From Massilia sp. S19_KUP03_FR1 (GTDB lineage: Bacteria; Pseudomonadota; Gammaproteobacteria; Burkholderiales; Burkholderiaceae_D), in the NCBI RefSeq assembly GCF_036688685.1, contig NZ_JAQQPS010000007.1, positions 2,013 to 66,012 of the forward strand: a stretch of DNA of 64,000 nucleotides, read 5' to 3'. Position numbers and translations under genes: made by a program. This document shows positions 15,681 to 50,002 of the stretch, piece after piece. The notes under the pieces were generated by a model. The model saw only the letters and a program-made list of their open reading frames with translations, did not search any database and had not been told where the DNA came from. The first letter of the stretch is position 1, and every line of letters begins with the position of its first letter.

Positions 15681-15702
15681 TGGATCAAGAAAGGAACTGC
15701 AA

Positions 15703-15866: not shown

Positions 15867-15892
15867 TCTGTCGGCCTGGAATTCCGCTATGG

Positions 15893-17171: not shown

Positions 17172-17277
17172 GGGTGAAAATGCGGCGGATGGATTTGGTT
17201 CGTCCACTTAACGCGAACCGTTCCTTTTTTCGGACGCCCCCGGCTACGCCCTGGCAGGATCAGCGACGGGGGCAAGC

Positions 17278-20456: not shown

Positions 20457-20458
20457 TC

Positions 20459-21958: not shown

Positions 21959-21963
21959 ACCGC

Positions 21964-22422: not shown

Positions 22423-22445
22423 CGATGGGCGTGCATCCGTGCCAA

Positions 22446-22916: not shown

Positions 22917-23020
22917 TGTTATTAGGTCACGTTGGGAAAATCACGAAAATCGGCAAGCACAATGTAACAAATAATTGCATTTGTTGACTTGTGACATTAG
23001 TGCCCCGTAGACTTGTTTCC

Positions 23021-24307: not shown

Positions 24308-24348
24308 TTCACGCTTTGCTCAGTGCCCATCCGGGGTAAAGTAGCACC

Positions 24349-25311: not shown

Positions 25312-25437
25312 CATGCGCAAAAGCAACAATACCAGCGAAACCAGCAAGACAGCGCGCCCGCCACGTGCAAATACAGTTAAGCTGTCTTTGGCTGCACCGT
25401 GCTACCCTGTCCCCTCCCCCGCACTGGCCCGACGTTC

Positions 25438-26958
25438 ATGAACAAGTGTTGCAATCCCGATCATCCGCACTGCACCGTCTGGGTCATGCCCGGCGCGGAC
25501 AGTTGCGTGCACGGGCATGCGCAGCCAGCGGCCGCGGCAATGTCAGCGGCGCCAGCGCCAGTCGCGCTGACGCCGACGCTCGACAATCCTTTTGACATGT
25601 TGACGGCGCTGCGCCAGCGCCGCGACGATGCCCCGGCCGGCATCCATCCGCGCCATCCGGTGGCGCGCCGGCCGCATTTGCGCATCAGCGGTTTCGATCC
25701 GCGCGCAGCCGGCGGGCGCCAGTCGATCAAAATCGACCTGCGTGGTCTGGCGCCCAACACGGCGACCCAGATGCACATGACGCTCGCGTCCGACCTGTTT
25801 GCCCACGGCAGCGAGCGCCACACGTTTGCGCACAGCGTCGACGGTGACTGGCGCCCCGCGTTCGTGGAATTTTCTTCGCGCGGCCTGGAACATGGCCAGT
25901 ACCGCATCGATGTCGAACTGCGCAGCGAAGAACCGGGCGAGCGTGGCCCGCGCGCAGCGCGCACCTGGGTGTGTACGCTGATGATCCTGGTGCCGCGCCT
26001 GGATGCGTCGCTCACCGATATCCACCAGACCTTCCTGGCCACGCACAAAAACGTGCGCGTGATGGCCGACGACGCCGGCATTGCCCGCGTCAACGCGCCG
26101 GGCGGCGCCAGCATGAATATCGACGTCACCGCACGCAATGCCTCGATCGCGCACCTGAATCTCGATACGCCCAGCGGCAAGGTCGACCACAGCATCGGCA
26201 CCATCGCCTGGGACGAAGACCTGATCGAAATCGCTACGCGCCGCAACGAGCCGCATGCGTTCGCGGCCAGCGCCGCCAGCCTGGTCGACGCTGCGCCGGA
26301 CCACGGTGCGCCGCGCCACGTGCGCCTGTTCGCGCTCGATGAATGCATCCTGGGCCGCTGGGAGAGCGCGGCGCCGAAGGCCGACGTGCTGCTGGCCCAC
26401 TACGGTGAGAATGGCCAGGACCAGGCCGGCCTCACGCGCCGCCTGTCGGCCCGCCATGCCGTCATCCGGCGCGGTTCGCGTGGCTATGAAATCGAAGACG
26501 TCTCGCGCTACGGCATCCTGCTCGACGGCGTCTGGCCGGGCAAGCACCAGCCGATTCCGCTGCGCCTGGGCATGCGCATCGAACTGTCGGCCAGCATCAA
26601 GGGCATCGTCGTCATGGAGGTGGGCGCCCTGCTGCCGAACGGCGTCATCCTGCACCGCATCGACCAGGGCGCGGGCGCCGAGTGCCTGTACCTGATGGAT
26701 CCGGAACGCCACCCCGGCTTTCCGGTGCCAGATTATCCATGCGCGCCGCGCGCCTGCGCGATGCCGGTGCTGTTCCACCGCGATGGCGGCTTCTGGCACC
26801 TTGACGCCAACACCGGACGCGAAACATCCCTCGGTCCGGCCACGCTGGTCGACCGCCTGACACGCTTCGGGCGCCACGTGCGCTTTGCGGGCAAGCCCTA
26901 CCCGGAAGACCAGTCGGTGCGCACAACCGAACGCCGGCGCGCACCAGCACACTCGTAA
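25438..26958 (+). CDS. FHA-domain protein (C-terminal FHA)
   Basis: RRLSARHAVIRRGSRGYEIEDVSRYGILLDG has FHA hallmarks. The Cys/His-rich N-terminus is unusual. Confidence 0.65.
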   Translation: MNKCCNPDHPHCTVWVMPGADSCVHGHAQPAAAAMSAAPAPVALTPTLDNPFDMLTALRQRRDDAPAGIHPRHPVARRPHLRISGFDPRAAGGRQSIKIDLRGLAPNTATQMHMTLASDLFAHGSERHTFAHSVDGDWRPAFVEFSSRGLEHGQYRIDVELRSEEPGERGPRAARTWVCTLMILVPRLDASLTDIHQTFLATHKNVRVMADDAGIARVNAPGGASMNIDVTARNASIAHLNLDTPSGKVDHSIGTIAWDEDLIEIATRRNEPHAFAASAASLVDAAPDHGAPRHVRLFALDECILGRWESAAPKADVLLAHYGENGQDQAGLTRRLSARHAVIRRGSRGYEIEDVSRYGILLDGVWPGKHQPIPLRLGMRIELSASIKGIVVMEVGALLPNGVILHRIDQGAGAECLYLMDPERHPGFPVPDYPCAPRACAMPVLFHRDGGFWHLDANTGRETSLGPATLVDRLTRFGRHVRFAGKPYPEDQSVRTTERRRAPAHS

Positions 26959-27188: not shown

Positions 27189-27593
27189 TTGAATCAGCCT
27201 GCGAACTGGAAGGTGTCTTTCCATGATGATTTCGATCCCGAGTTCGACGCGTTTGCAGCCGATGTGCAAGATGAGCTGCTGGCCGCCGCCGCTGCGCTGA
27301 AACGGCTGGGGCCTGCAGCAGACCGGCCGCACGTCGGCACGCTGGACAATCCCAGCCATCCGAACATGAAAGAACTGCGTTTCAAGGCAAACAACGGCGC
27401 GGAAATTTGGCGGGCCGCGTTCGCCTTCGATCCGCAGCGGGAGGCGATCATCCTGGTTGCGGCGGACAAACAGGGCGTCGATGAAACGAAGTTCTACAAG
27501 AATTTGTTGAAGAAGGCTAACAAGCGCTTCGACCAACATTTGGCGAGCCTGGCGGCGCAGGTACAAGCCGGCGGCGGCAAGCAAAAAAAATAG
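27189..27593 (+). CDS. Type II toxin, HigB/RelE-superfamily (Gp49/PF05973-like)
   Basis: WKVSF..F..EFD.F, MKELRF and WRAAFAFDPQREAIILVAADKQG match Gp49-like toxins. AGGAGA SD; TTG start. Lys-rich tail. Confidence 0.6.
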   Translation: MNQPANWKVSFHDDFDPEFDAFAADVQDELLAAAAALKRLGPAADRPHVGTLDNPSHPNMKELRFKANNGAEIWRAAFAFDPQREAIILVAADKQGVDETKFYKNLLKKANKRFDQHLASLAAQVQAGGGKQKK

Positions 27594-27602
27594 GAGAGTG
27601 AC

Positions 27603-28040
27603 ATGGGCAGAAACCTCGACGACATCATCCACAGTTTGCCGGCTGAACGCCAGGCAAAGATTGCCCGCGCGGCCGACCAAAAAGTCGCGGACATGCTGGC
27701 CCATGCCACCACACTCGCCGAATTTCGCAAGGCTGTCGGCAAGACGCAGGCCGAGGTTGCAAGCGAGCTCGGCATCGGGCAGAACGCCGTCTCACAGATG
27801 GAGCAGCGTGCCGACACCTATGTTTCCACGCTGCGACGTTATCTGAAGTCGCTCGGGATGACGCTCGAATTGTCGGTGGTCGACAAGGATGGCGATCGGT
27901 ACGACTTGCCGTATTTCCTTCCCTGGCAGGCAACTGGACTGGAAGTGAATCAACAAGCGGCGTCCTACGCTGCCGAAAAAACATCCAGCGCGGCCACACC
28001 CGCAGTGCGCGCGAATCGGCGCAAGCCCGGCGCAGCATAA
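27603..28040 (+). CDS. XRE-family HTH antitoxin (HigA-like)
   Basis: HTH LAEFRKAVGKTQAEVASELGIGQNAVSQME. It starts 10 nt after the toxin stop and has a good SD. Confidence 0.7.
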   Translation: MGRNLDDIIHSLPAERQAKIARAADQKVADMLAHATTLAEFRKAVGKTQAEVASELGIGQNAVSQMEQRADTYVSTLRRYLKSLGMTLELSVVDKDGDRYDLPYFLPWQATGLEVNQQAASYAAEKTSSAATPAVRANRRKPGAA

Positions 28041-28057: not shown

Positions 28058-28735
28058 TCAGCCTGCCCGCGAAATCACACGCACCGGCGACAGGCAATGG
28101 TCGCGAAAGCCCATGCGTTTGTACAGGCCGTGCGCCGCCGCGTTGTCGTGCATGACATGCAGGAACGGCGTCTCGCCACGCATCAGCTGCAGGCGCGCCA
28201 GTTTGGCCACCAGCCGCCGCGCCATGCCGCGCCCCGCGTAATCGGGATGCGTGCAGACGCCCGACACCTCGCGCAAGCCATCTGCAGCGAGGCGTTCGCC
28301 GGCCATCGCGATCAGGCGCCCGCCTTCAAAATAGCCGAAGTAGTCGCCCAGTTCGATGGTGCGGATCCCGAAAGGTCCCGGCCTGGTCAGTTCGGCCAGC
28401 GCCAGTGCGGCCTGGGCGTGTTCGGGACCGAGTTTCACGGCGTCCGGCGCCTGGTCGTTGGCGGGAATCGGCGCATCCCACACCATGCGGTACATGCTCG
28501 CTTCGTGGTCGAGGCGCCAGCCGTGCGGCACCGGGCCGCTCCAGCCATCGCAGTAGATTTGCTCGCCCGGTGCGCACAGGTGCGCCAGCGCGATGAAGTC
28601 GGGCGAGGCAGCCTGCTCGAAACCCGCGATGGGCGAAAAACCCGGCGCGTAACGGCGCACTTCGCCGCTCCCGACAGCGTATTCGGCTTGCGGACCCTTG
28701 AGGGAATTCCAGAAAATATTATCGAGCAGGCTCAT
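28058..28735 (-). CDS. GNAT family N-acetyltransferase (FR47-like)
   Basis: C-terminal acetyltransferase core (GVCTHPDYAGRGMARRLV). It lies 6 nt downstream of the kinase-FGE gene. Confidence 0.7.
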   Translation of the reverse strand: MSLLDNIFWNSLKGPQAEYAVGSGEVRRYAPGFSPIAGFEQAASPDFIALAHLCAPGEQIYCDGWSGPVPHGWRLDHEASMYRMVWDAPIPANDQAPDAVKLGPEHAQAALALAELTRPGPFGIRTIELGDYFGYFEGGRLIAMAGERLAADGLREVSGVCTHPDYAGRGMARRLVAKLARLQLMRGETPFLHVMHDNAAAHGLYKRMGFRDHCLSPVRVISRAG

Positions 28736-28741
28736 GGGGCG

Positions 28742-31009
28742 TTATTGTTGGTTAATTGATATTGACGACTCTAGCATGCGCTCCGAATGCATCAACTCGC
28801 GTACGACACGAAATCCGACGATATCGTTCGCCATTGTGGCGGAAAAGCCATTTCGTAATGCAGAGCGCAGATAGCGCGGGTGATACAGCCAGCAGCCGCC
28901 ACGCAAAATATGGCGGCTCTGGTCGCCGCCGTTGCGCCAGGCACTGCCGTCCGTCGGCGCGCCGTCGTAGGTATCGTGCACCACATCCTGGACCCATTCC
29001 CAGACGTTGCCGTGCATGTCGAGCAGGCCCCACGGGTTCGGTGCGAACGCCCCCACCGGCGTGGTGCCGCGCCTGAACACGCCGGTGGCGCCGCCATTGT
29101 ACGAAAAGCTGGCATCGTAATTGGCCTGGCCGGCATGGATCGTGTCACCGGTGGAAAACGCCGTGCGCGTGCCGGCGCGGCAGGCGTATTCCCATTCCGC
29201 CTCGGTGGGCAGGCGGTAGCGCTGGCCGGTCTGCTTGCACAACCAGACCAGGTATAGCTGGACGTCATTCCACGACACGCCAACCACGGGGTGCGTATCG
29301 GTTTGCGTGAAGCCGGGTGCTTCCCAGTCGACGTCGCCGTGGTGGCGCCAGCCGGTGGCGCTGGCAAAGCGGCGCCACTCGCCTACCGTGACGGGCGTGC
29401 GGCCCATGGCCAGCGGCCGCTCGATGCCGACCCAGTGCTGCGGCGTTTCGCGCGCGAGCCAGATGCGCTGCGCGCCGGCCGCCAAGGCGATCGCGCGCTC
29501 GTGCTCGGGCGAACCCATGTGGAAACGCCCGGTCGCGATCAGCACCAGTTCCGGGGCAGCTGCGCCATCGGCGAATGTGTCGCGCAAGATGCCTTGCGGG
29601 TCCGCCACCGGGCTGTCAGGCGACGGCAGCAGCTGCGCCAGCTCGGCCTGGTTGCGCGCGGCCGCCTCGGCGCGCGCGCGCTGTTGTTCGGACAGGTAGG
29701 CGGCGGCCGCTTTGGCCTGGTTGGCCTTGCGCTGGGCTTCGTCCTGCTCGGCTTGCGCCTTGGCCGCATCCAGCGCGCGCCGTTCGCGCAGCTGCTCGCG
29801 CAGGATCACCCGGCGTGCGCGCCTGGCCGTCTCGGCCTCGCGCTGGGCGATCTGCTCCTGCTCCTTGCGCTGGCGTACCACCAGCGCCCGCGCCAGCACG
29901 GCCTGCTCTTCCGCCTTTCTACGGGCCACCTGTTGGGCCGCCTGTTTTTCGGCACGGACCTGGGCCGCCACCTGGCGCGCGACCAGGTCGTCGGCCGATG
30001 GTGGACGCGGACCACGCAGGCGCGCCAGCAATTGCGTCACGCTGGGCTGGCGCAGCTTGGGATCGAAGGCAAAGCCCTCCTGCAGCGCGCCCCACTGGGC
30101 CGGGGTAAGCGAGCCCGGCGACTGGTCCGGCAAATGCGCCAGTTCGGCGCGGCCGGTGAGCATCTGGTAAATCATGACGGCCACCGCATACACGTCCAGC
30201 GTGCGCACCGGCACCATGGCGGCGTTATTTGATTCCGGCGCGCGGTACACCAAGGTACCCGAATCGGCCGGCGCCTCGCGGCTGGCCAACTGCTCCGGCT
30301 CGGCGCCACGCGAGCGCGCCGCGATGCCGAAGTCGAGCAGCTTGACGTCACCGCCCTTCGTGACGAACACATTGGCCGGTTTGATGTCGCGGTGGACCAG
30401 GTGCTGCTTTTCCCACGCATAATCGAGCGCCACGCCGACCGGCTCCAGCAGGTTCAACACGCGTTCGAGCGGCAGCGCGCCGGCATGCGACATCAGGCCG
30501 GCCAGGTCTTCGCCGTCGAGGTATTCCATGATGATGAAATAACTCATCGTCGCCGGATCCTGGGCCCAGTCGTAGACACGCACGATGTGTTCGTGCGCCA
30601 GCGCGCGCGCGCGCGTGGCTTCTTCGACCAGCAAGCGGGCGAAGTGCGGGCTGTGGGTCAGCTGGGGCGGGATGATCTTCAATGCCACCACGGCGCTGTG
30701 ACCGAGTTCGGCGTGGGTGGCCAGGTCAAGGGCCTGCCACACCTGGCCCATGCCGCCCAGCGCCACCATGCGCTCGAGCCGGTAGCGGCGGTTTGCGGGC
30801 CCCACTTCCTGGCCGGTCATCAGGCCGATCTCGGTGCCCGACCCTGGCGCGCTGCCAGGCCCCGACCCCGCCGCGCCGGGCGTCCGGCCCGGCGGTGCGT
30901 ACTCCGCATCGAGAATGGCGTTCTTGCGGCGCTCGAACTCGTCCCTGCTGAGCAGGCCGTCGTCGTGCAGCGCGCGCAGTTCGCGGATCTTGTCGATGGC
31001 GGTGTGCAT
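28742..31009 (-). CDS. Multidomain SHOCT - Ser/Thr kinase - coiled coil - FGE-sulfatase (SUMF1-like) protein
   Basis: N-terminal SHOCT-like (LRALHDDGLLSRDEFERRKNAIL). Kinase motifs HRDIKPANVFV, DFGIA and APE. Long Ala/Glu/Arg-rich coiled coil. C-terminal FGE motifs (VSWNDVQLYLVWL, RLPTEAEWEYACRAG, HGNVWEWVQD). Confidence 0.85.
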   Translation of the reverse strand: MHTAIDKIRELRALHDDGLLSRDEFERRKNAILDAEYAPPGRTPGAAGSGPGSAPGSGTEIGLMTGQEVGPANRRYRLERMVALGGMGQVWQALDLATHAELGHSAVVALKIIPPQLTHSPHFARLLVEEATRARALAHEHIVRVYDWAQDPATMSYFIIMEYLDGEDLAGLMSHAGALPLERVLNLLEPVGVALDYAWEKQHLVHRDIKPANVFVTKGGDVKLLDFGIAARSRGAEPEQLASREAPADSGTLVYRAPESNNAAMVPVRTLDVYAVAVMIYQMLTGRAELAHLPDQSPGSLTPAQWGALQEGFAFDPKLRQPSVTQLLARLRGPRPPSADDLVARQVAAQVRAEKQAAQQVARRKAEEQAVLARALVVRQRKEQEQIAQREAETARRARRVILREQLRERRALDAAKAQAEQDEAQRKANQAKAAAAYLSEQQRARAEAAARNQAELAQLLPSPDSPVADPQGILRDTFADGAAAPELVLIATGRFHMGSPEHERAIALAAGAQRIWLARETPQHWVGIERPLAMGRTPVTVGEWRRFASATGWRHHGDVDWEAPGFTQTDTHPVVGVSWNDVQLYLVWLCKQTGQRYRLPTEAEWEYACRAGTRTAFSTGDTIHAGQANYDASFSYNGGATGVFRRGTTPVGAFAPNPWGLLDMHGNVWEWVQDVVHDTYDGAPTDGSAWRNGGDQSRHILRGGCWLYHPRYLRSALRNGFSATMANDIVGFRVVRELMHSERMLESSISINQQ

Positions 31010-31016
31010 CAAGAGG

Positions 31017-32984
31017 CTAGGTTCCCAACGGCGCGCCACAGACGCCGCAAACCTGTTCGTGCGCCAACCCAGGGTGACCGTGGGCGCAGCGCCGCACCAG
31101 GCCTGCCGCCAGCTGCGCCTGCGACGTCAACGCCGTCTTGTTGACGTCGTTCTGGATGGTCAGCAGGTCGAACTGGTGACGCCGGTCCTTGTCCACTTCC
31201 GCATCGCGGCGGGCGCCTGCTTCCCGCATGGCTTCCTGCGCCATGCGCTGCGCTTCCTGCGGCGTGACGCCGGCCTGCGCTGCCGCCACCTGGGCCAGTG
31301 CGGCCAGTTGGCTGGCATCCATACCGGCGTGGACACGTGTTTTCAGGTAGTCGGCCAGCACAGCGGCATTCGGTGCCGGCGCCATGGCCAGCTTGGTTGC
31401 ATCGTCTACCGCGCTCATGGCCTGCATGCGCGCCAGGTCGTGGCTGTGGACCGCATCCTGGCTGTCGCGCGCCATGGCGTGGCGGCGCTCGTCGCCGTCG
31501 AGCGCGATGTCGCTGGCGATGCGTTGCGAGCGGGCGTCCGCTTCGATCGTGCGCAGCAGCTTTTCGTGCTGGGCCAGGCTGTCGCGCTGACCGCCGCTGC
31601 GGCGCATGTCGCCCAGCTGCTGCGCGGTGGTTTCGTCCTCAACCGATGCCGCGCGTTCGGTCTCGCGCAGGCGCGCCTGGTGGGCGGCCGCGAGCAACGC
31701 GCGCCGGCCCTGGTATGCATCCTCCTCGATGTCATGCTCACGGCGCGCGGCGGCCACTTCCATCTCGCGCAGGCGCGCCAGCTCGGCGCGCTGGTGCGCG
31801 GCGTCGGCAATCCCGCCGGCCTGCTCGATCTTGTTCCTGATTTGCTGCTGCAGCACCTGGTGCGCGAAACGCTGCTGCGCCAGCTGGCGCGACTGCAGTT
31901 CGTCCTGGTGCGCCAGCGCCAGTTCGGCGTGCATATGGACTTCGGCCAGTTTACGCAAGTGCTGCCACTGCGTTTTCTCGTCGCCGCGCGCCAGGCTTTT
32001 CTGTGCCATCTCGTGTTCGAGTTCAGCCAGCACTTCCCCCGCGCCACGCTCGACCGCCTGTTTTTTGGTGGCCGAATCCATGATGCGCGCATACAGTTCG
32101 ATCTCGCGCGCGCGCATGGCCTGGCTGCGCTCTGCGCTTTGCAGCGTCAGTTCGGCCTGCTCGATGGACGCATCGGCGCGCAGTTCCTGGCGGCGCTTGT
32201 CCAGGCGCGCGTCCTGCTCCGCGCGGCGGATGCGCTGCCATTCTTCGTCGTCGTACAGCTGTTCGAGGTTGCGCGCGTGCTCCACCTGCACCTGACGCTC
32301 GTCGGCGGCCAGCCACAGGCTGGCGACCTTGTCGCGGTTGGCGTCGAATTTATCGTGGCGCAGTTCGATCGTGTCGACCTGGGTGACGGCCAGGCCGAAC
32401 TGGGCCAGGCGCAGTTTCAGGGCGGCCTGCAGGCGCTCGTCGAGTTGCGGGCGCAGCGCGCGGTTGGCGGCCATCTCGCGCAGCGAACGGGCGCCCACGA
32501 ATTCGGCCGCCAGCTGGCGCACGGACGGCGCCAGCAATTCGCGCAGCTGGGCGCTGGCCACCGTGCCCGGCGCGGTCATGAAGTGGCGCGCAAAGGCGGC
32601 GACGTTGTCGACCTGCACACTGATCGTCATGCGCGCGTCAACCAGTAAATGTTCGGAGGTGGCCAGCCCGCCAAAGCTGAACGACACCGGCAGCGCGCTG
32701 GTGCGGGTGATCAGGATCTCGGCATGGCCGTCGCGCAGCAGGTGATTGAGGCGCGTAAAAAAACCTTCGATTTCGTACTCGCCCTGAGGCACCTCGGTGG
32801 CCTGGTCGCCCTGCAGGATGTAGGCACGGGTGGTGGCCGGCACGCGCAGGGTTTTGACGAAGATGCCCGACAAGGCCGACACGCCAAAAAACACGGCCAG
32901 GTCGTCCGGGCCGGCGATCCAGCGGTTGTCCACCAGGACCGGGCTACCTCGTGCTGCGCCTGCATTTGCCATCTCGACCATCAT
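31017..32984 (-). CDS. SPFH/band-7 (flotillin/YqiK-like) protein with long coiled coil and C-terminal Cys/His zinc-ribbon-like tail
   Basis: SPFH core (ILITRTSALPVSF...LLVDARMTISVQV...FGLAVTQVDTIEL). About 350 aa of coiled coil. C-terminal CAHGHPGLAHEQVCGVC. Start chosen at the ATG behind the GAGGGAG SD; the ORF is open to 33155. Confidence 0.75.
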   Translation of the reverse strand: MMVEMANAGAARGSPVLVDNRWIAGPDDLAVFFGVSALSGIFVKTLRVPATTRAYILQGDQATEVPQGEYEIEGFFTRLNHLLRDGHAEILITRTSALPVSFSFGGLATSEHLLVDARMTISVQVDNVAAFARHFMTAPGTVASAQLRELLAPSVRQLAAEFVGARSLREMAANRALRPQLDERLQAALKLRLAQFGLAVTQVDTIELRHDKFDANRDKVASLWLAADERQVQVEHARNLEQLYDDEEWQRIRRAEQDARLDKRRQELRADASIEQAELTLQSAERSQAMRAREIELYARIMDSATKKQAVERGAGEVLAELEHEMAQKSLARGDEKTQWQHLRKLAEVHMHAELALAHQDELQSRQLAQQRFAHQVLQQQIRNKIEQAGGIADAAHQRAELARLREMEVAAARREHDIEEDAYQGRRALLAAAHQARLRETERAASVEDETTAQQLGDMRRSGGQRDSLAQHEKLLRTIEADARSQRIASDIALDGDERRHAMARDSQDAVHSHDLARMQAMSAVDDATKLAMAPAPNAAVLADYLKTRVHAGMDASQLAALAQVAAAQAGVTPQEAQRMAQEAMREAGARRDAEVDKDRRHQFDLLTIQNDVNKTALTSQAQLAAGLVRRCAHGHPGLAHEQVCGVCGAPLGT

Positions 32985-33090
32985 TGACTCCCTCATTTCA
33001 AGCTGCGTCACCCTGCCGTTGCGGGCAGTACACGATTCTAGCAGGGGCGCCGCCTCAACACCCCCGGCACACCCGTCATTTTGTTTCTTT

Positions 33091-34071
33091 TCAGAAAATT
33101 CCGATTTGCGCGACACAGGCCAGGCTGGCGCCACGGGCGCGCACCGCATCGGCAAACTCTGGCGGCAGCATGGTCTGCCAGGCTTGCGGCAGCAAAATCC
33201 GGTCGCCCGGCGCGGCTTCGGCCGCGATCAGGGCGCATTTCGGCACTATCCCTTCGACCGTGTCGACCTGGCCCGTGTGCCAGCCATGCGAGGTACCCGA
33301 GGCGATGATGCGGCCGCGCGCCACATAGTCGCGCCCGCGCGCCAGCCGGTCGGCCAGCACCAGCGCCAGTTCGTACGAATTGCCCTGGAAGCGCTGCTGG
33401 CCAAACCTGATGGTGGTGCGCCAGCGCCCGGGGACGCAGCGGTCGAAATCGCGCGCCCCCAGCAGCGCCTGGCGCACTGCCAGCTGGCGCGTGACATCCA
33501 GGCCCGGGACGGTCACGGCGTCGTCGTCAAGGTCGCCCGCCAGCAGCGGATACACGCTGACCTCGACCCAGCACAGGCTGTCGTTGATGCCGCCGCTGTG
33601 CAGCGGGAACCAGGCGCGCGCGCTCGACACCACGTGCGCCGCATCCGGCTGGCCGGTCAGCGCGCCCAGGTGCGCCATGCCGCCTGCGCCGCCGAGCAAG
33701 GCGGGCGGGTCGGCGTCGATGGTGTGGCCGTCGATACGGCCCAGCTGCCACTGGTCGGACCAACCGTTGGCGCACGGCTCGTTAAGGTGCACCAGGCCGC
33801 GCACCATCCGGTCGGCCAGCACGGCGGCGAGTTCCCAGTCACGCGTGCCGGGGTCGATGTCGATGCTCAGCACGACCTGATCGCGGCTGTCGATGCGCGG
33901 CTCGGTGTGGCGTGCCAGGCGCACCACCTGCTGCATGCGCTCGGCCAGCCCCGGCACGCCGCTGCACTTGACGTCGGCACGGCCGGCGCGCGGGCGCCGC
34001 GTCGCCGTGACGGTGGCAAAGCTGCCGTTGGCCAGCAGGCAGCGGCAGGCGGCACGATCGGGACAGTTCAT
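33091..34071 (-). CDS. Lon/S16-like Ser-Lys protease domain protein with internal duplication
   Basis: GNSYELALVLADRLARG (Ser motif) ... IIASGTSHGWHTGQVDTVEGIVPKCALIAAEAAPGDRILLP (Lys motif) resemble the Lon C-terminal domain. An earlier half-repeat DWELAAVLADRMVRGL. ATG overlaps the upstream stop (ATGA). Confidence 0.55.
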   Translation of the reverse strand: MNCPDRAACRCLLANGSFATVTATRRPRAGRADVKCSGVPGLAERMQQVVRLARHTEPRIDSRDQVVLSIDIDPGTRDWELAAVLADRMVRGLVHLNEPCANGWSDQWQLGRIDGHTIDADPPALLGGAGGMAHLGALTGQPDAAHVVSSARAWFPLHSGGINDSLCWVEVSVYPLLAGDLDDDAVTVPGLDVTRQLAVRQALLGARDFDRCVPGRWRTTIRFGQQRFQGNSYELALVLADRLARGRDYVARGRIIASGTSHGWHTGQVDTVEGIVPKCALIAAEAAPGDRILLPQAWQTMLPPEFADAVRARGASLACVAQIGIF

Positions 34072-35057
34072 GCGCTCTCCATGGCGCGGCGCCCGGCCAG
34101 CGCAGCTTCGAGATTGGCGGCGATCCGTTCGGCGTCGTCGAGCAGGTCGGCATTCGCCCTGGACCCGGCGCGGGCCAGCCAAGCCCAGGTTTCGTCCAGT
34201 GCATCCGTGGCGCACAGCGTGTGGCGCGCGCGGCGCTGCTGAGCACCGAGCGGCAAGGGCCGGGCGGGTGCGGCCAGTGCCAGTGCGGGCATCGTCAATA
34301 CGGCCAGGCTGGCATGGTCGAAACGCTGCACCAGCGCCCTCTGGCGGGCAAACCCATCGACATCGAGCAGGCGCAGGCGGCTGGTCACGACGGGTAGTTC
34401 GAGGAACAGGCGGCGCAGCGCGGCAGCGTCCGTGAGGCAAGCTGCCGGCTCCGGCAAGGGCGCAGTCACGAAGGCGCAAACGGGTACATCGGCCAGCGCG
34501 CGTGCTGCCAGCAACGCGGCGTAATCGACCTGCCCGGCCAGGTCGACCGGGATGCACTCGTCGACGGTGACGCCGAAGCGCATGTACAGCAATTCATTGA
34601 GGCCGGCGCGAAACGCGTTCCATTCTTCCAGCAAGGTGCAGGGTGGCAGGTCGAGGTGGCCCTGCGCCAGTTCGCGCTGCAGGGCCGCATCGAGTGCGGC
34701 ACGAAAGGCGTCCAGCGCGACCGACTGCCCGCCTTCGCCGGCCAGGAATAAATCGAAGCGCTGCTGGGCAGCCAGCGGATCGGGACTGTCGACCACCACG
34801 CGCAGTTGCAGGCCAATTTCGGGCGCGGCCAAAAATGGCGTGAGAACCAGCTGGTACGGGCCGGGATGAAAACACCACGCGTGTCCACCGGCCACGAGCG
34901 CCATGCGCGCGCCCTCTGCGAAGCGGCGCGTGCGACCGGCCGCATCGACCGCCACGCCCACGCAGCCGGGCGGCACCACGCCCACCATGCGCGCGGCCAT
35001 GACGGCGCCGCCCAGGGTGACGGGTGCGGGACGGCGCCGCTGGAACAGGTTTTTCAC
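34068..35057 (-). CDS. Hypothetical protein (operon gene C)
   Basis: Ala/Leu-rich 330-aa ORF. Proposed GTG start forms a GTGA overlap with the stop of gene B. Its TGA overlaps the ATG of the Lon-like gene. Confidence 0.45.
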   Translation of the reverse strand: MKNLFQRRRPAPVTLGGAVMAARMVGVVPPGCVGVAVDAAGRTRRFAEGARMALVAGGHAWCFHPGPYQLVLTPFLAAPEIGLQLRVVVDSPDPLAAQQRFDLFLAGEGGQSVALDAFRAALDAALQRELAQGHLDLPPCTLLEEWNAFRAGLNELLYMRFGVTVDECIPVDLAGQVDYAALLAARALADVPVCAFVTAPLPEPAACLTDAAALRRLFLELPVVTSRLRLLDVDGFARQRALVQRFDHASLAVLTMPALALAAPARPLPLGAQQRRARHTLCATDALDETWAWLARAGSRANADLLDDAERIAANLEAALAGRRAMESA

Positions 35058-35592
35058 GGCAGCGCTTCGACGGCGAACCCGGCGCCACAATGCTGAAAGT
35101 GGTCGGCAGGCGCGCGCACGAACGGCCACGCGCTTTCGCATTCGCCATCGGCGTCAAGGCGGCCAGACAGCACCACCCCACCGGCGCCATCGAGCACGCG
35201 CAGCATCGGCTGCGCGGCCAGCAGCTGGCGCGCGAACGGCGCCGCTGCGGCCAGTTGCAGGATTACGCGGCAAGCATCCGGGGCCTTGATGAAGTGCAGT
35301 GTCCAGAAACCGTCGTCGGTGACCAGTTCATCCAGTGCAGCGCCACTGTCGGCGGCGCGCAGCATGCCGCGGCTGGCGCGCCAGGCGCCAGAGCGCTCGC
35401 CGACCAGCTGACGCAAGCGCCGGATCGTCAGGGGGGACGCCGCCAGCGCCGCTTTTTCAGCAGCCGACAGCGGCAGGCTGCCGTCGATGGCTGCGCGCAG
35501 TACGGCATCGGCCAGCACCAGGCGGTCGTTGGCCACGGGCGCGACCAGCAGCGCCGCGCGCAGCTTGCGTTCGAATGGATCGTTCGGTGTCA
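35054..35592 (-). CDS. Hypothetical protein (operon gene B)
   Basis: 179 aa. SD AAAGGAG before the ATG. ATG overlaps the stop of gene A (ATGA). Confidence 0.55.
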
Positions 35593-36783
35593 TGTGGTCT
35601 CCTTTTCGCGCGCCGCCTGCATCAGGCGGGCGATTGCCGCATCGCGGCGTTTTCTCAGGGTCGGCAGCGACACGCCGGCCAGCACGGCCAGCTGCTGCAT
35701 CGTCGGCAACGCGCGCGTCGCCGGGTCGCACCAGGCGTCCGGATACACATCATCCTCCGGGCCGGTCAATTTCAGGTACACCGCCAGCCGCACCGGCAAG
35801 CCATCGTCCATCATCATGCGGGCCGCCCAGCTGTGCCGGTCTTCGGCCAGTTGCGCCATCTGGATAAAGCCGGGGGGCAGTGCAACACTGGCGGCAACGG
35901 CGTCGCTGGCAGGGTCGAGCACCAGTGGCACGGTGTCGACGACGTCCATCGGCAGGTCGATCGGTTCCTGGCGCGCTTCCAGGATACGGTCCGGTGCGGG
36001 CGCCGTCTGTTCGGGCGCGGCCAGCACGCGCCAGTAGTCGTCCAGCCAGTCGGTGGCTTCACCGGCGTCGAGGCGCCAGTCGGCGTCGCGGTTGGCGGAC
36101 AAGGCTTCGTACTCGGCGATTTCGGCCAGCATGACGCCGATCTTGGCCGGATTGTCTTTCAGCGCCTCGAAGCGCTTCGAGCGCGTGTGCAGCGGACCGC
36201 CGCACGACGCGCTCCAGCGCAGGACCCATTCGGGGCGGCACCCGGCAATCGACGTCATCTGGCGCACCTCGATCGGGGCAGCGAGTACTTCGCGCCCGAG
36301 AATCGCACCCACCTGCAGCGCGTGGCTGCGCCAGTCGGCAAACAGGCGGGCAATCTCATGGTAGGCCGTGTCGAGCATGCGGTAGGCGTAGATGCGGTTC
36401 GGGCTGCACGCGCGCCCGCACGCGACCTGGTAGTTGTCCGAGTCGACCTTGTCGCGCAGCGTGGCATACATGTCGTTGACCTTCTTGCGCAGCAGCGCTT
36501 CGCCCGCATCGACCGGCAACGATGCCTGGAACTCGTCCCAGTCGCCGGGCCGCGCCTGCAATTCGTACAACAGCGTCAAAGCCAGGTCGCGCACGCTGTC
36601 GCCGTAGCTGTTGCCGGGACCGTCGAAGCGGCTGCCAACGCGGTACAAGGCCGCTGACATCTGCTCCACATACGCGTCGAGGCACAGCGCGGGGGCGGCA
36701 AAAGCGCCGAGCGAGCACTGGCCGAGCAGTTTGCGCACCTGCTCCCAACCGTGTTCCTGGTACCGGGTTCCCGGCAAACGCAT
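35590..36783 (-). CDS. Hypothetical protein with C-terminal sigma70-region-4-like HTH (operon gene A)
   Basis: SD GAAGGGAG before the ATG at 36783. C-terminal LPTMQQLAVLAGVSLPTLRKRRDAAIARL resembles an ECF-sigma region 4 HTH. The N-terminal 330 aa has no recognisable domain. Confidence 0.55.
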   Translation of the reverse strand: MRLPGTRYQEHGWEQVRKLLGQCSLGAFAAPALCLDAYVEQMSAALYRVGSRFDGPGNSYGDSVRDLALTLLYELQARPGDWDEFQASLPVDAGEALLRKKVNDMYATLRDKVDSDNYQVACGRACSPNRIYAYRMLDTAYHEIARLFADWRSHALQVGAILGREVLAAPIEVRQMTSIAGCRPEWVLRWSASCGGPLHTRSKRFEALKDNPAKIGVMLAEIAEYEALSANRDADWRLDAGEATDWLDDYWRVLAAPEQTAPAPDRILEARQEPIDLPMDVVDTVPLVLDPASDAVAASVALPPGFIQMAQLAEDRHSWAARMMMDDGLPVRLAVYLKLTGPEDDVYPDAWCDPATRALPTMQQLAVLAGVSLPTLRKRRDAAIARLMQAAREKETT

Positions 36784-36851
36784 AGGCTCCCTTCGACGGC
36801 GCCCGCGCACGGGCGAGCTGGTAAATTCATGCTACATCTTGCCATATCCAC

Positions 36852-39800
36852 TCAAGGGACAAGGCGTCCGTCAGAACCGGATTTCCCCTTCTTTTCCTGA
36901 TTCTGCAGCATCGCCCGCAGCACGGCCGCGACAACCGGCGCCGCGTGGTCGCCGCCGCTCGCCTCCGAGTGGCTGACGAACGTGGCGAACCCCAGCCGGT
37001 GGCGCTGGCCGGGCAGGCTGCCCGGCTCCAGCCAGCCAGTGAACCAGACCGTGGCGGTGGCGCCATCGCTGCCCGAGGCCGGCCCGGTTGGCGCGGTGCC
37101 GGTCTTGCCCGACAAGCCGCGCCGCACCAGCGCCAGTTCCGGCGCCCCGAAAGCATGGGCCGCCGTGCCGACGTCGACCACGCCCTTCATGCCGGCGCGG
37201 ATCCGGTCCAGCCGCACGCCCGTCGCGGGCGCGTCGGCGGCGACTGCCGGCCGGCCATCGAGGGCCAGCAACAGGCGTGGGGCCGGGATGCGTCCCTGCC
37301 CGACAGCGGCGGCGGCCAGCGCCATCTGCAACGGCGTGGCCTGCATGCGCAGTCCAATGGCCATCTGGCGCAGTTCGTGGCGCGAGTGGATCGGGTCGAT
37401 ATGGGCAGCGCTGGTCTGCAAGGCATCCCACGCCGACCAGTTGAAATCATCAGGCAACAGGCCGCCATCGAGGCGCAGCTGCCGCTCGAAGCCGAGCCGG
37501 TGCGCCATGGCGACAATCGGCCGCACGCTCTCGAGCGCCGCCGGCTCAAGCCCGGCCAGGTCGGGGGCGCCGCCGGCGCCGCGTCCGAACAGGCTGCGGT
37601 CGGACAGCTCGCCGGTCCAGGCGAACCAGGTATTCAAACTCCAGGTCAGCGCCTGCGCCATGCCAAGGCGCCCATCCTGGGCGCGCCGGCCCGCCAGCTG
37701 CTCGCGGTAGTTGGTGATGCGCGCCTGCCTGACGGCCGGGTCCCACGGATAGGCCGGCGCGTCGGTCTGAAAGGCGAAGCCGCGCGAGCGCGCCAGCCGG
37801 TCGATTTCTGCCAGCGGTATGCCATTCATGAGCGCGTCGAGTTGCGGGTCGCGCTGCGCGGCCAGCTCCAGGCCGAGCGCGCTGATCACCTTGAAGCTTG
37901 ACCCCGGACTCCGGTGGGCGCCGCCATCGTGCTGCAGCGCCGGCAGGCGCAAGGGACTGCGGGCCGGATCGAGCCGGTCGAAGTCGCGCACCTCGGCCCA
38001 GTTGGCGGCGTCGACCTGGCCCGTGCCGGCGCCAGCGGCAGCCAGCACGTCGCCGGTTTCCGTGTCAAGGATAACCATGCCGGCGTGGCGGCCGTCCGGC
38101 GCCGCCATGCCACCCGTGCAATGGCTGCCGTCCCAGCGGCCGCGGCGCATGCCAATGCAATCGAGCGCGCCCTGGCTGGCCGCCTGCAGCGCCAGGTCGA
38201 GCGTCAAGGTGGCGGCATGCGCGCCGCCGTCGCCCACCCGCCCCAGCATGCCCGCAATGCTGTTGGCCTGGTCGGCGCGGTAGCCCAGCAGCGGCGCCAG
38301 CCCCGCCGCGCTGGCAGCGGCGCTGGGTGCGCCGTCGCGCCACAAGGCGGCGCCGTTGCGGTCGACCAGGGTCACTGGCGCCAGGCTGGCGCGCGCCACG
38401 GTCGGGCGCGCAGCCATGCTTTGCCAGGCCAGTTTGCCCCCGGCCAGGCCGATGTGGCGGTAAGCCGCGTCGCCCGGCGCCGCCAGCGTTTGCATGGGCG
38501 CCACGTCCAGCCGCACGCTGGTGGCACCCGGCAGCAGCCCGAGGCGCAGTTCCTGGGCCGCATCGGCTGCCGGACACGCGCGCCCGGTGCAGGCCGGCTC
38601 GCTGGCCAGCAGCCGCGCGCCTGCTACCGAACCGACGCCACCGAGCACTATCAGGCGCAAGATTTCCGTGCCTTGCGCCGGCTGCGCCAGCGTGTAGGTC
38701 AAGCGCGCCGGGCCGGACCCGGGCCAGTCCTGGATCCGGCGCCAGGCATCCCAGCCCTGCGGCAGCTGGGCGAACAGGCGGGCGGCAGCGGCCGGCATCG
38801 TCTGCGCAACGGTGGCGGGCGCGCCACCCACGCTCGCTTGCCAGGTGCCGGCCAGCGCCTGCGGGCGCGTGCGCCATGCCAGCAGGCGCCGCTCACTATT
38901 AAACAGTTCCACCTGGGCGCGCACGAAATCGCCGTCGGCGCGGTGGTACAGCCGTTCGAGGCGTTTCAATGCGGCTGGATCGAGCGCCGTGTGCTCCCAA
39001 CCGGCCAGCGCTGCGGCGCGCGCCGGCCCGGGCGCTGCGCGCCATGCGGCCAGGTCGCGCGGCGCCAGCATGATCAGGCCATCGGGGCCCAGGCGCAGCA
39101 GGCCGCCGGCGACCAATTGCGCGAACAAGGCCTGGTCTTCCAGCGCCGGCGCGGCCACCACCGGCACCTGGTAGCGCCCGGCCGGCAGCCAGGCAGTGTC
39201 GGTGACGGCGCCGTACGCCATCACCAGCGCCCGGCCCGCTAGCGCCGCCGCGGGACGCAGCAACTGCACCTGCAACTCGCCCGCGGCCGCACAGCTGGCA
39301 CTGGCCCGGCGCTGCAGGCGCAGCGCCGCAGTTTGCCCGCCCGTCGTCCACAGCAGCCAGCCGTCGCGCCCGAGCGGCACCGATGCCGCCGCGCCCGACA
39401 CGATGCGGCCGGCGCCGGCGTCGCCGATCCAGTGTACATTCTCCACCCCGGCCACGCCTTCCCAGCGCAGCCGCGCGGCCTTCGCCACGCCACTTACTTC
39501 CACCCGCGGCGTCAGCGCGCCGGGCGCAGCCAGCACCACATTGCGCGGCGTGACACTGGTGCTGCCCGATGCATTGCGCGCGACCCACGCCGCGACATCG
39601 CTGAACTGGTAACCGAGGCGCAGCGGCAGCAGGCGCCCGGTCGCGCTGTCGGCCATCTGGCTGCACAGGTCGATCCGCAGCGGCGCCTCGCTGCGCATGT
39701 TCGACGCAATCAGCAATGCCGCCGCGCCGCGCTGCTCGAGCGTGATGCCGGGCATGGCGGCGACCGTGAAGGCGGCGCCGGGCAAGGTGGCGTGGAAGGC

Positions 39801-40097
39801 GGCGGCCGCGTACACGCCCTCGACCGCGCCCACGGGTCCGGCCGTCACCGACAGATGGCGCGCGTGACCGGCGATGACGAACGCGCCGGCGAGCGCACCG
39901 AGGACGCTGGCGGCGGCGATCCATTCAGCGGGACGTGGCGCCCGCAGCCGCGCCAGCCTGAAGCGCGGCGCACTGCCCTGCAGCGCCGGCGCGGTGTCGG
40001 CGCGGCGGGCGCCATGGCGCAGGTTGCGCGCGCGCCGCCCCGCGGTCCGGCTGGCGCGCCACGCTTCGAACACTGTCCTCGATCCCCGCATGTGCAT
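36852..40097 (-). CDS. Large membrane-anchored penicillin-binding-protein-like transpeptidase (1081 aa) with about 650-aa N-terminal domain of unknown function
   Basis: N-terminal TM helix. C-terminal transpeptidase motifs in the correct order: SxxK (SSFK), SxN (SLN) and KTG (KTGT). Confidence 0.75.
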   Translation of the reverse strand: MHMRGSRTVFEAWRASRTAGRRARNLRHGARRADTAPALQGSAPRFRLARLRAPRPAEWIAAASVLGALAGAFVIAGHARHLSVTAGPVGAVEGVYAAAAFHATLPGAAFTVAAMPGITLEQRGAAALLIASNMRSEAPLRIDLCSQMADSATGRLLPLRLGYQFSDVAAWVARNASGSTSVTPRNVVLAAPGALTPRVEVSGVAKAARLRWEGVAGVENVHWIGDAGAGRIVSGAAASVPLGRDGWLLWTTGGQTAALRLQRRASASCAAAGELQVQLLRPAAALAGRALVMAYGAVTDTAWLPAGRYQVPVVAAPALEDQALFAQLVAGGLLRLGPDGLIMLAPRDLAAWRAAPGPARAAALAGWEHTALDPAALKRLERLYHRADGDFVRAQVELFNSERRLLAWRTRPQALAGTWQASVGGAPATVAQTMPAAAARLFAQLPQGWDAWRRIQDWPGSGPARLTYTLAQPAQGTEILRLIVLGGVGSVAGARLLASEPACTGRACPAADAAQELRLGLLPGATSVRLDVAPMQTLAAPGDAAYRHIGLAGGKLAWQSMAARPTVARASLAPVTLVDRNGAALWRDGAPSAAASAAGLAPLLGYRADQANSIAGMLGRVGDGGAHAATLTLDLALQAASQGALDCIGMRRGRWDGSHCTGGMAAPDGRHAGMVILDTETGDVLAAAGAGTGQVDAANWAEVRDFDRLDPARSPLRLPALQHDGGAHRSPGSSFKVISALGLELAAQRDPQLDALMNGIPLAEIDRLARSRGFAFQTDAPAYPWDPAVRQARITNYREQLAGRRAQDGRLGMAQALTWSLNTWFAWTGELSDRSLFGRGAGGAPDLAGLEPAALESVRPIVAMAHRLGFERQLRLDGGLLPDDFNWSAWDALQTSAAHIDPIHSRHELRQMAIGLRMQATPLQMALAAAAVGQGRIPAPRLLLALDGRPAVAADAPATGVRLDRIRAGMKGVVDVGTAAHAFGAPELALVRRGLSGKTGTAPTGPASGSDGATATVWFTGWLEPGSLPGQRHRLGFATFVSHSEASGGDHAAPVVAAVLRAMLQNQEKKGKSGSDGRLVP

Positions 40098-40273: not shown

Positions 40274-40513
40274 ATGAATGCACTGAAACATATGGAAGCC
40301 GTTTTCGTCATCGCCCTGTCGGTTGCCAGCGTCAGCGGCTACCTGGCCGCCACCACGCAGGACGCCAACGCGAGTCCGGCGCCGGTCGTCAGAGATGCAC
40401 AGGTGGCGCCACAAATGGCCGTCGTCAACGTTGTCGCGAAACGCTTGAGCGCCGCCGAGAAGGCGCAGTCGCTGCGTGAAGAAGCCGCTGCCACCGTCGT
40501 CGCGAGCCGCTGA
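40274..40513 (+). CDS. Small secreted hypothetical protein (79 aa)
   Basis: SD AAGGAG, signal peptide. It is followed by the perfect palindrome GCAAGGCGGCG/CGCCGCCTTGC. Confidence 0.5.
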   Translation: MNALKHMEAVFVIALSVASVSGYLAATTQDANASPAPVVRDAQVAPQMAVVNVVAKRLSAAEKAQSLREEAAATVVASR

Positions 40514-40525: not shown

Positions 40526-40547
40526 GCAAGGCGGCGCGCCGCCTTGC
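40526..40547 (+). terminator. Candidate terminator hairpin
   Basis: 22-nt perfect GC-rich palindrome followed by a T-rich stretch (CATTCTGTTT). Confidence 0.35.
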
Positions 40548-40648
40548 GCACATTCTGTTTCAAATGTAAGCACATGCATCACTTCTGCCCTGTCCGCACA
40601 TCGCTTGTTATATTCGATGCATCCACTTCGGACAAGGAGACAGACATC

Positions 40649-41131
40649 ATGAAACGCACCCTCACACTCGCTGCCTTGCTGGCCCTCGGCTCAGCCGCTT
40701 TCGCACCATTGCCAGCAATGGCCCAGCCCAACATCAGCGTCTACGTCGGTGGCCCGCCGCCACCGCCGCGCTTCGAGCGCGTGCCTGAGGCCCGTCGTGG
40801 TCATATCTGGTCGCAGGGCCATTGGGAATACCGCGGCCGCCGCCATCAATGGGTGCCGGGCGTCTGGATTGTCGAGCGCCCGGGCTATGCCTACGCGGCG
40901 CCGGTCTGGTACGAGGAGCGCGGGCGCTGGCAGATGCGTCCGGCCGCATGGTCGCGCGGTGGCCCTGACCGTGACCGCGACGGCATCCCGGACCGCTTCG
41001 AGCGCCCACGCCACGGCGGCGACCGCGACCGCGACCACGATGGCGTACCGAATCGCTACGACCGCGACCGCGATGGCGACGGCGTCCCGAACCGCCACGA
41101 CCGCCAGCCGGACAACCCGCGCCGCGACTAA
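40649..41131 (+). CDS. Secreted WXXGXW/YXWGXW-repeat protein with C-terminal thrombospondin-type-3-like Asp-rich calcium-binding repeats
   Basis: SD AAGGAG. Signal peptide. HIWSQGHWEYRGRRHQWVPGVW and WYEERGRWQMRPAAW repeats. DRDRDGIPD, DRDHDGVPN and DRDGDGVPN repeats. Confidence 0.7.
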   Translation: MKRTLTLAALLALGSAAFAPLPAMAQPNISVYVGGPPPPPRFERVPEARRGHIWSQGHWEYRGRRHQWVPGVWIVERPGYAYAAPVWYEERGRWQMRPAAWSRGGPDRDRDGIPDRFERPRHGGDRDRDHDGVPNRYDRDRDGDGVPNRHDRQPDNPRRD

Positions 41132-49927: not shown

Positions 49928-50002
49928 TGAAGGCGCCTGCGTGCAGGCCAGCGACGCCCCGCAGCGGGGATGGTAATCGTTTAAACGCTGAACCGCGCCC
50001 GC

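Follow-up and report, generated by a model that had tools for sequence, protein, structure and literature searches.

A seven-gene chromosomal unit of Massilia and its relatives, and its possible role in phosphorylation-controlled cell-wall synthesis

What kind of system places a giant penicillin-binding protein (PBP), four smaller genes that we call A to D, an SPFH protein and a fusion of SHOCT, Ser/Thr kinase and FGE-type domains head to tail on one strand? The question is raised by positions 28058-40097 of a 64,000-nucleotide stretch of Massilia sp. S19_KUP03_FR1 (contig NZ_JAQQPS010000007.1, positions 2,013 to 66,012), called the window below. An earlier note on this DNA, made from the sequence alone, proposed either an envelope-stress or cell-wall-remodelling signalling system or a defence module built on an SPFH scaffold. 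We followed it up by comparative analysis and structural prediction, which provide all of the evidence presented here. The cluster, together with an operon that converges on it, probably represents an auxiliary cell-wall synthase, composed of a SEDS protein and a class-B-type PBP (SEDS-bPBP), plus its regulatory apparatus. In its full form our reading is tentative and, in our judgement, falls a little short of an even chance: a lineage-specific chromosomal module in which Ser/Thr phosphorylation controls an auxiliary peptidoglycan synthase equipped with a proteolytic and transcriptional switch.

The array contains eight genes, given here from the PBP gene onwards:

36852-40097, minus strand: giant PBP, 1081 aa
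35590-36783, minus strand: gene A, 397 aa
35054-35593, minus strand: gene B, 179 aa, coupled to A through an ATGA overlap
34068-35057, minus strand: gene C, 329 aa, with a GTGA overlap with B
33091-34071, minus strand: gene D, 326 aa, with an ATGA overlap with C
31017-32984, minus strand: SPFH protein, 655 aa
28742-31009, minus strand: SHOCT-kinase-FGE protein, 755 aa
28058-28735, minus strand: GNAT acetyltransferase, 225 aa, with a Pfam match above threshold

Successive gaps from PBP to GNAT are 68, -4 (ATGA), -4 (GTGA), -4 (ATGA), 106, 7 and 6 nt. Third-position GC content and open reading frame (ORF) structure support all eight genes as coding, and an independent gene call on the public contig of the same strain returned identical lengths for the seven complete ones, the PBP gene being cut at the contig end. 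Proteins A and D match entries of this strain with 100% identity. The head-to-tail layout and spacing first described are therefore sound. Pfam thresholds were passed by Transpeptidase in the PBP, by Band_7, by SHOCT, Pkinase and FGE-sulfatase in a single protein, and by GNAT, which bears out the original SPFH and kinase-FGE calls, while A-D had no match in PADLOC, Pfam or NCBIfam. Hydropathy predicts a transmembrane (TM) segment in the PBP alone and none in the SPFH protein, the kinase-FGE protein or any other product of the unit, all of which are predicted to be cytoplasmic. Rfam detected no RNA family at 16-42 kb of the window.

Is this arrangement a conserved unit? Scanning for the locus with an alignment of gene A homologues, we found relatives in 218 species-representative genomes and inspected the best 80 of them, along with 40 metagenome loci and six distant loci. 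In every sufficiently long locus among these 80 genomes, PBP, A, B, C, D, SPFH and kinase are all present in one order and on one strand, and every sufficiently long metagenome locus carries the identical seven genes with the same order and strand. Since the same arrangement recurs across 80 genome and 40 metagenome loci, it is not due to chance. The order is unbroken in about 120 loci, with protein identity between species of just 50-65%. Median gaps in related loci are 73 nt for PBP-A, -4 for A/B, 3 for B/C, -4 for C/D, 199 for D-SPFH and 7 for SPFH/kinase, and the D-SPFH spacer is never shorter than 61 nt. Genes that border the unit are kept on both sides as well, with upstream genes for a WXXGXW protein, RVT_3, HD and MFS proteins in 48-58 loci. 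No gene A homologue was found on 72,556 plasmids or in 50,697 phage genomes; IMG/VR yielded a single A match (L137), on a contig that ends inside the gene.

Nearly all of the best 80 genome loci come from organisms named Massilia or Telluria, and a few are labelled Janthinobacterium, Herbaspirillum, or to family or phylum only. The unit belongs to the Oxalobacteraceae, in the Massilia/Telluria/Duganella group; distant relatives of it are rare. The earlier note had looked to Burkholderiales at large for conserved neighbourhoods and had named scattered, non-syntenic genes as one result that would speak against it: the synteny is a feature of this narrower group.

The GNAT gene, counted in the note as the eighth member of the array, has to be left out. 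It has a counterpart in only one of the 80 related loci, and a HigB(Gp49)/HigA(HTH_3) toxin-antitoxin pair (27189-28040, plus strand), which lies with it between the unit and the convergent operon, has none. For this reason GNAT and HigBA look like a strain-specific insertion behind the kinase gene. The spacer between the two operons is variable, and in other genomes holds Pirin, OsmC or DUF1801 genes. What is conserved is seven genes at a fixed chromosomal site.

The neighbour that faces the kinase end of this unit is a plus-strand operon (17212-26958) with the following genes:

17212-18180, plus strand: Ser/Thr kinase (Pfam)
18051-20456, plus strand, probable start at 18177: 801-aa ORF with a C-terminal FtsW/RodA SEDS domain (Pfam)
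20459-21958, plus strand: 499-aa unknown protein without a Pfam match
22988-24307, plus strand: MFS_3 protein (Pfam), a place taken by an SH3_3 gene in other genomes
24349-25311, plus strand: PP2C phosphatase (Pfam)
25399-26958, plus strand: FHA-domain protein

The stop of the kinase gene and the start of the SEDS gene overlap in an ATGA at 18177-18180. The 499-aa protein was considered as an FHA protein or a PBP, and Pfam matched neither. This operon is conserved along with the seven-gene unit. In related loci, where the view is limited by a 10-kb flank, the first gene after kinase-FGE is an FHA gene in 44 cases, and PP2C comes next in 23; in the genome records of Massilia endophytica and Duganella sp. 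PWIR1, 5.4 and 6.8 Mb long, genes ordered STK-SEDS-unknown-SH3_3-(PP2C)-FHA (STK, Ser/Thr kinase) converge on kinase-FGE-SPFH-D-C-B-A across a variable spacer. Five gene types, STK, PP2C, FHA, SEDS and bPBP, lie together within 17212-40097.

Such company recalls the cell-wall and division locus of Actinobacteria, fhaA-fhaB-pstP-rodA-pbpA-pknA-pknB, which likewise unites Hanks-type kinases, a PP2C phosphatase, FHA proteins, a SEDS protein and a class-B-type PBP in one neighbourhood. The differences are considerable. Here there are two convergent operons rather than one co-directional operon; neither kinase contains a PASTA domain, and in place of a PASTA sensor there is a cytoplasmic kinase with SHOCT and FGE-like domains; the PBP, whose ectodomain is uncharacterised, is double the normal size; and A, B, C, the Lon-like protein D, the SPFH protein and the 499-aa unknown have no actinobacterial counterpart. 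A link between a PP2C locus and cell-wall synthesis is documented for Actinobacteria (PMC6554272).

We then asked what accompanies genes A-D outside the Massilia group. Where A is only distantly related (25-36% identity), it is still accompanied by B, C and D, in other surroundings:

L084: transpeptidase, M23, FtsH-like (AAA-M41) and SLT genes, divergent from kinase-FGE-A-B-C-D; after A-D, HipBA, a second SHOCT-kinase, FtsK/SpoIIIE, FGE and, at the end of the locus, an SPFH homologue
L133: SHOCT-kinase, A-D, SHOCT-kinase-FGE
L135/L136: SEDS gene (37% identical) divergent from A-D; zinc-ribbon protein, PP2C (50%), FHA and a convergent SPFH gene (45%)
L088: A-D, then a 1439-aa caspase-like Peptidase_C14 protein, stand-alone FGE, Sel1 and FtsK/SpoIIIE

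Gene A of L135/L136 is 30% identical to that of the window by BLASTP, or 36% over the matched stretches, and there the parts of our two operons are merged in one block. The linkage of this gene set persists despite rearrangement, a classical mark of functional coupling. No other observation argues as strongly for a joint function of A-D, the SPFH protein, the Ser/Thr signalling parts and the cell-wall synthases.

Several features of these loci are recorded here for their own sake. After D, L135 encodes a 455-aa protein (14350-15717) in which an N-terminal zinc ribbon and a C-terminal transglutaminase-like Cys-His motif (GTCFDLAV...PGHALL) can be made out by eye, and for which the window has no counterpart. 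The quartet is followed in L084 (17340-20969) by an FtsK/SpoIIIE ATPase, a stand-alone FGE-like protein and a pair of helical proteins, each about 100 aa long, and in L088 (14524-21497) by an FtsK/SpoIIIE ATPase, a stand-alone FGE-like protein, the Peptidase_C14 protein and a Sel1-repeat protein. These trailing genes could represent a conflict or secretion module of their own, or else an alternative output of the cassette. The polytopic N-terminal domain joined to the L084 transpeptidase was considered as a SEDS-transpeptidase fusion and rejected, with no Pfam SEDS match and a BLASTP E value of 0.04.

The same neighbourhoods raise the possibility of a biological-conflict system (anti-phage, abortive-infection or programmed-death), in which A-B-C-D and a kinase or FGE sensor would form a portable trigger for lineage-specific effectors, the PBP in the window and caspase-like or FtsH/M23/SLT enzymes in other lineages, on an SPFH scaffold. 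The L088 quartet precedes the caspase-like protein, FGE, Sel1 and FtsK/SpoIIIE genes, and HipBA, a second kinase, FtsK/SpoIIIE and FGE lie beside that of L084; conflict systems repeatedly make use of caspases and FGE-type domains (PMC7159879). The kinase domain in the window matches the PD-T4-6 and MAD6 defence-kinase models of PADLOC-DB v2, and Lon-like domains occur in BrxL. These kinase matches are, however, generic to Hanks-type kinases, while A-D, SPFH and PBP have no PADLOC match (for the PBP, none better than E 0.1). None of the FtsK/SpoIIIE, caspase and other neighbours of the distant quartets is found in the window. The cluster of the Massilia group occupies a fixed chromosomal site with conserved flanks, and the locus scan found it in 218 species genomes. 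Its complete synteny, and the lack of any A homologue on the plasmids and phages searched, are the opposite of the patchy, mobile pattern of defence islands; its conserved neighbours are cell-wall and phospho-signalling genes. We therefore regard a conflict system as unlikely. Between the two ideas put forward in the earlier note, cell-wall remodelling is clearly the better supported, given the fixed site, the convergent STK-SEDS-PP2C-FHA operon and the merged L135/L136 block, while defence draws indirect support only, from the neighbours of distant quartets.

The PBP consists of a conserved Arg-rich cytoplasmic tail, a TM helix (59-77), a periplasmic N-terminal domain of about 540 aa and a C-terminal class-B-type transpeptidase domain. 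Pfam Transpeptidase (PF00905) matches at 7.6e-13 and was found in 15/15 orthologues, and the family profile matches MrdA/PBP2 structures (7kis, 2.3e-6; 4mnr, 2.5e-9). Its active-site motifs S733-x-x-K736, S820-x-N822 and K998-T-G are 100% conserved, and since these catalytic residues are kept the enzyme appears competent. Residues ~78-612 have no detectable homologue.

A PBP with an intact acylatable serine could also be a receptor. It might act as a beta-lactam or muropeptide sensor rather than a synthase in a split system of BlaR1/MecR1 type, where acylation would be signalled through the tail to D, D would cleave a partner of A, and a protective response would follow with a sensitivity tuned by the kinase. 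The fully conserved SxxK, SxN and KTG motifs would suit such a sensor, as would the single TM helix with its conserved Arg-rich tail, the large non-canonical ectodomain devoid of PBP_dimer, and the translationally coupled protease and HTH (helix-turn-helix) protein genes directly downstream. By analogy, the chain from a sensor PBP domain through a protease to a DNA-binding protein would parallel the known logic of BlaR1-BlaI. Yet there is no homology to the BlaR1 zinc-protease domain or to BlaI, and neither a beta-lactamase gene nor any obvious resistance gene belongs to the conserved unit. Linkage to SEDS, FHA and PP2C better suits a synthase partner, and some distant A-D quartets lack any PBP. 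We consider a damage sensor improbable, and return to the PBP as a synthase.

Gene D had been called Lon-like. No sequence search supports this, with no match in Pfam (including Lon_C), NCBIfam, phmmer or a PDB profile search, but the predicted structure does. The AlphaFold2 (AF2) model (pLDDT 86.6) matches the P-domain of E. coli Lon in Foldseek (3wu3; E 3.9e-7, TM-score 0.66-0.68, target 0.66), and further matches include RadA, ComM, LonC and BrxL (E 1e-7 to 1e-4). D is built from two tandem copies of the Lon proteolytic fold, its N- and C-terminal halves aligning in hhalign with a probability of 97.9% (E 6e-13), and these two halves account for all of its 326 aa, leaving no fused AAA+ ATPase module. 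All 77 sequences compared keep G230, S232 and K278. The Ser232-Lys278 pair lies in the C-terminal copy, the N-terminal one being degenerate, and its spacing is 46 residues against 43 in E. coli Lon, in an alignment made by eye. As the Ser-Lys pair is kept, D appears to be catalytically competent. It has the fold of stand-alone or accessory Lon domains such as those of LonC, RadA/Sms, ComM, BrxL and YlbL, and retains the Ser-Lys dyad as does LonC; it differs from them in having no AAA+ or PDZ module and in its tandem duplication with a degenerate first copy.

Gene A encodes an all-alpha N-terminal domain (1-255) and a helical C-terminal domain, joined by a disordered acidic linker (264-283), and the AF2 model (pLDDT 88.6) is all-alpha. 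The N-terminal domain is a new all-alpha domain. The sigma-region-4-like HTH first noticed at the C-terminus stands as a weak resemblance to that region, one that fails the Pfam sigma models. Beyond this HTH, A, B and C have no recognisable domain, as originally described, and Pfam and NCBIfam match none of them. At E <= 0.001 there are 1167 homologues of A and 954 of D, and the A family is small, with 71 clusters (50% identity) in a set of 1.84 billion proteins. Sigma region 2 is absent from the A protein of the window. Sigma70_r2 does match one member of a 45-sequence A-family alignment (1.9e-4), which we take to be the distant protein P0272 (locus L086, 55-1785) on account of an inserted segment in alignment A2. 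The N-terminal domain of P0272 carries an insert resembling region 2 of extracytoplasmic function (ECF) sigma factors, and an insert occupies the corresponding position in P0307. The P0272 insert hints that the A family derives from, or works like, sigma factors.

In this respect the locus resembles the ECF sigma factors activated by Hanks-type kinases (PknT-EcfP and PknS-EcfK), where a Ser/Thr kinase also lies beside a protein with sigma region 4; here that place is taken by a protein whose HTH weakly resembles this region, and a distant A member has a Sigma70_r2 segment. The window's A differs in lacking region 2 and in consisting mostly of a new all-alpha domain, and those known kinases are transmembrane proteins whereas ours is cytoplasmic.

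B and C have no detectable homologue in Pfam or PDB profile searches. B carries the conserved motifs SPLTxRRLR and DGECExxWPF, and searches for an anti-sigma factor or other known family returned only noise (contactin Ig, E 0.1; DUF3263, 0.05). C was tried as a second SPFH protein, as in an HflK/C-like pair, and the hhalign comparison with the SPFH family was not significant (E 0.019 over 30 columns).

The SPFH protein passes the Pfam Band_7 (PF01145) cut-off of 23.6 with 29.6 bits (9e-7). Its SPFH domain is divergent, with Band_7 detected in 4/14 orthologues, Band_7_1 weakly in 1/14 and Zn_ribbon in 7/14, and neither sequence nor profile comparison with the PDB gave a match. A long charged helical region leads to a C-terminal zinc-ribbon-like Cys/His cluster, in which C633, C646 and C649 are at least 96% conserved. 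Most orthologues (e.g., L027, L053 and L135) also start with a zinc ribbon (MFQMFGFGG..CPRCEHKN..GYCA.CG), which is missing from the window protein, beginning MMVEMANAG.... 

The regulation of proteolysis by SPFH scaffolds is an established theme (cited within PMC3581485), and the pairs HflK/C-FtsH, stomatin-NfeD/STOPP and prohibitin-m-AAA share with our locus an SPFH gene beside a peptidase, D being directly upstream of SPFH; a distant locus even carries an FtsH-like AAA-M41 gene. The peptidase here is an ATPase-less tandem Lon fold and not FtsH or a ClpP-like NfeD, and the SPFH protein has no TM anchor and belongs to a family with zinc ribbons. A closer likeness in topology is YdjI/SamI, the TM-less, cytosolic SPFH protein of the B. 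subtilis pspA-ydjGHI operon, which acts in membrane and envelope-stress signalling and is recruited to the membrane by partners (PMC8581546; bioRxiv 10.64898/2026.02.06.704340). Sequence similarity to YdjI is marginal, and instead of PspA or YdjG/H homologues the partners here are the kinase, the PBP and A-D.

The kinase protein is made up of SHOCT, a Hanks-type Ser/Thr kinase domain, a charged coiled coil and an FGE-sulfatase-like domain (Pfam: SHOCT 4.8e-7, Pkinase 5.4e-31, FGE-sulfatase 3.5e-57). K111 (VAxK), HRD208, DFG and APE are 100% conserved in 62 orthologues. With their catalytic residues kept, this kinase and that of the convergent operon both appear to be catalytically competent. 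In the FGE-like domain, by contrast with the kinase domain, just 8% of orthologues keep the Cys of the GGCW motif (C706), a residue that we take to occupy the catalytic position of FGE. The domain would thus lack the catalytic cysteine, and we treat it as a ligand-binding module, not an enzyme. A SHOCT-kinase-PG_binding-FGE architecture has been described, and the most common fusion partner of SHOCT is band 7 domain PF13421 (Band_7_1) (PMC3581485).

How might these parts form a switch? We propose that an oligomeric SPFH lattice holds the kinase at the membrane through its N-terminal SHOCT domain, a docking suggested by the frequent fusion of SHOCT to band 7 domains in other proteins. The non-catalytic FGE-like domain would bind a cytoplasmic ligand that reports the state of the wall or envelope, and the kinase would then phosphorylate components of an A-B-C-D complex, the cytoplasmic tail of the PBP, or both. 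FHA proteins would read these marks and PP2C would erase them. Phosphorylation could license cleavage, by the Lon-like protein D, of a partner that acts as an inhibitor (B, C or A's own linker). The HTH protein A, freed in this way, would alter transcription from the promoters of the cluster and of the PBP gene. Precedent exists for direct phosphorylation of ECF sigma factors by Hanks-type kinases (PMC13147305).

Several points weigh against a phosphorylation-controlled wall synthase. The PBP_dimer pedestal, the part of a PBP that normally contacts its SEDS partner, was matched in none of the 15 PBP orthologues. The SEDS gene lies about 16 kb from the PBP gene, in the other operon, and adjoins the 499-aa gene, so that its partner may be that unknown protein, already in place. 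The FGE-like domain is cytoplasmic and its ligand binding is presumed, and the roles given to B and C, which have no detectable homologues, are guesses. Finally, L088, the only distant quartet with long flanks on both sides, has neither PBP nor SEDS gene, which shows that the A-D cassette is not intrinsically tied to the cell wall.

There is also a broader reading, which we consider rather doubtful, in which A-B-C-D is an unrecognised portable signalling cassette. It would consist of a new HTH protein, two orphan families and an ATPase-less double-Lon peptidase. Its partners would be SHOCT/FGE-type Ser/Thr kinases and SPFH scaffolds, and its output would depend on the lineage: in Oxalobacteraceae it would act through the giant PBP together with SEDS, and in other lineages through FtsH/M23/SLT enzymes or a peptidase of caspase type. 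If true, it would constitute a new phosphorylation-plus-proteolysis switch common to wall control and to cell death or immunity.

Do the seven genes form a single transcript, or even a single system? We aligned the intergenic spacers of related loci, and found two conserved blocks within the unit:

36834-36849, minus strand, PBP-A spacer: GTTTGTATGGCATCATCTG in most genomes and GGATATGGCAAGATGT here (alignment of 50 spacers)
33033-33044, minus strand, D-SPFH spacer: CTGCTAGAATCG, resembling an extended -10 element (TGn + TAGAAT)

With at most one mismatch, GTATGGCAT occurs in 36/50 PBP-A spacers and TGCTAGAAT in 57/75 D-SPFH spacers, and a third block, CCGCTAG, precedes the PBP gene in 36/66 loci. 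The block at 36834-36849 may be a promoter or operator for A-D, and CTGCTAGAATCG is probably a separate promoter for SPFH and the kinase. As candidate promoters or operators, assigned from consensus matches only, the three blocks suggest up to three transcription units rather than one transcript. A scan for sigma-70 promoter and terminator consensus sequences was uninformative in this region of 68% GC.

Promoter-like motifs before A and SPFH suggest separate transcription units, and could accordingly mean that the PBP, the A-D quartet and the SPFH-kinase pair are three independent units, adjacent by descent and forming no single system. Most loci come from one clade, in which shared ancestry alone could keep the order. 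Against this, the order has stayed unbroken in about 120 loci at 50-65% protein identity, and the components re-associate in other orders in L084, L133 and L135, where A is 25-36% identical. We hold such independence to be very unlikely, and keep to the auxiliary wall synthase and its regulators as one functional ensemble.

The combination is named by no library or paper that we searched, in agreement with the earlier note, which had recognised no named operon. Ser/Thr-kinase control of SEDS-bPBP synthases is well studied in Gram-positives and Actinobacteria and hardly in Proteobacteria, for which this locus would be a compact and testable example. Its parts are unusual: a 1081-aa PBP, about 540 aa of which form an uncharacterised ectodomain, a cytoplasmic kinase with an FGE-like sensor domain, a TM-less zinc-ribbon SPFH protein, an ATPase-less double-Lon peptidase, and, in A, B and C, three protein families without detectable relatives. 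A switch of the proposed kind, if real, would join SPFH microdomains, regulated proteolysis and Ser/Thr signalling, which are usually studied apart, and would give functions to families with about 1000 uncharacterised homologues each.

On the other side of the unit, the window contains two plus-strand genes divergent from the PBP gene. The first (40274-40513) encodes a 79-aa protein with an N-terminal hydrophobic segment and recurs in most of 66 aligned upstream regions; it is followed by the gene for a 195-aa WXXGXW-repeat protein (40544-41131), which recurs in 53 related loci. The intergenic region between the PBP gene and the 79-aa gene holds several conserved blocks, for instance TTTCGATGTGTTCACTGTAG and GGATTGCGACG. 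In a Massilia varians-like metagenome contig (L003, 2083-3367), a phage integrase and an excisionase lie immediately upstream of the cluster, and this flank may be a prophage integration site in some strains.

Further away, two stretches of the window have a low GC content (0.53-0.57 vs about 0.67 elsewhere) and may be acquired islands. The first (10000-16500) contains several ORFs without a Pfam match and an ankyrin-repeat protein (13168-13800), and the second (50000-52440) an Acyl_transf_3 gene (50003-51103, minus strand) and an Exo_endo_phos gene (51385-52440, plus strand).

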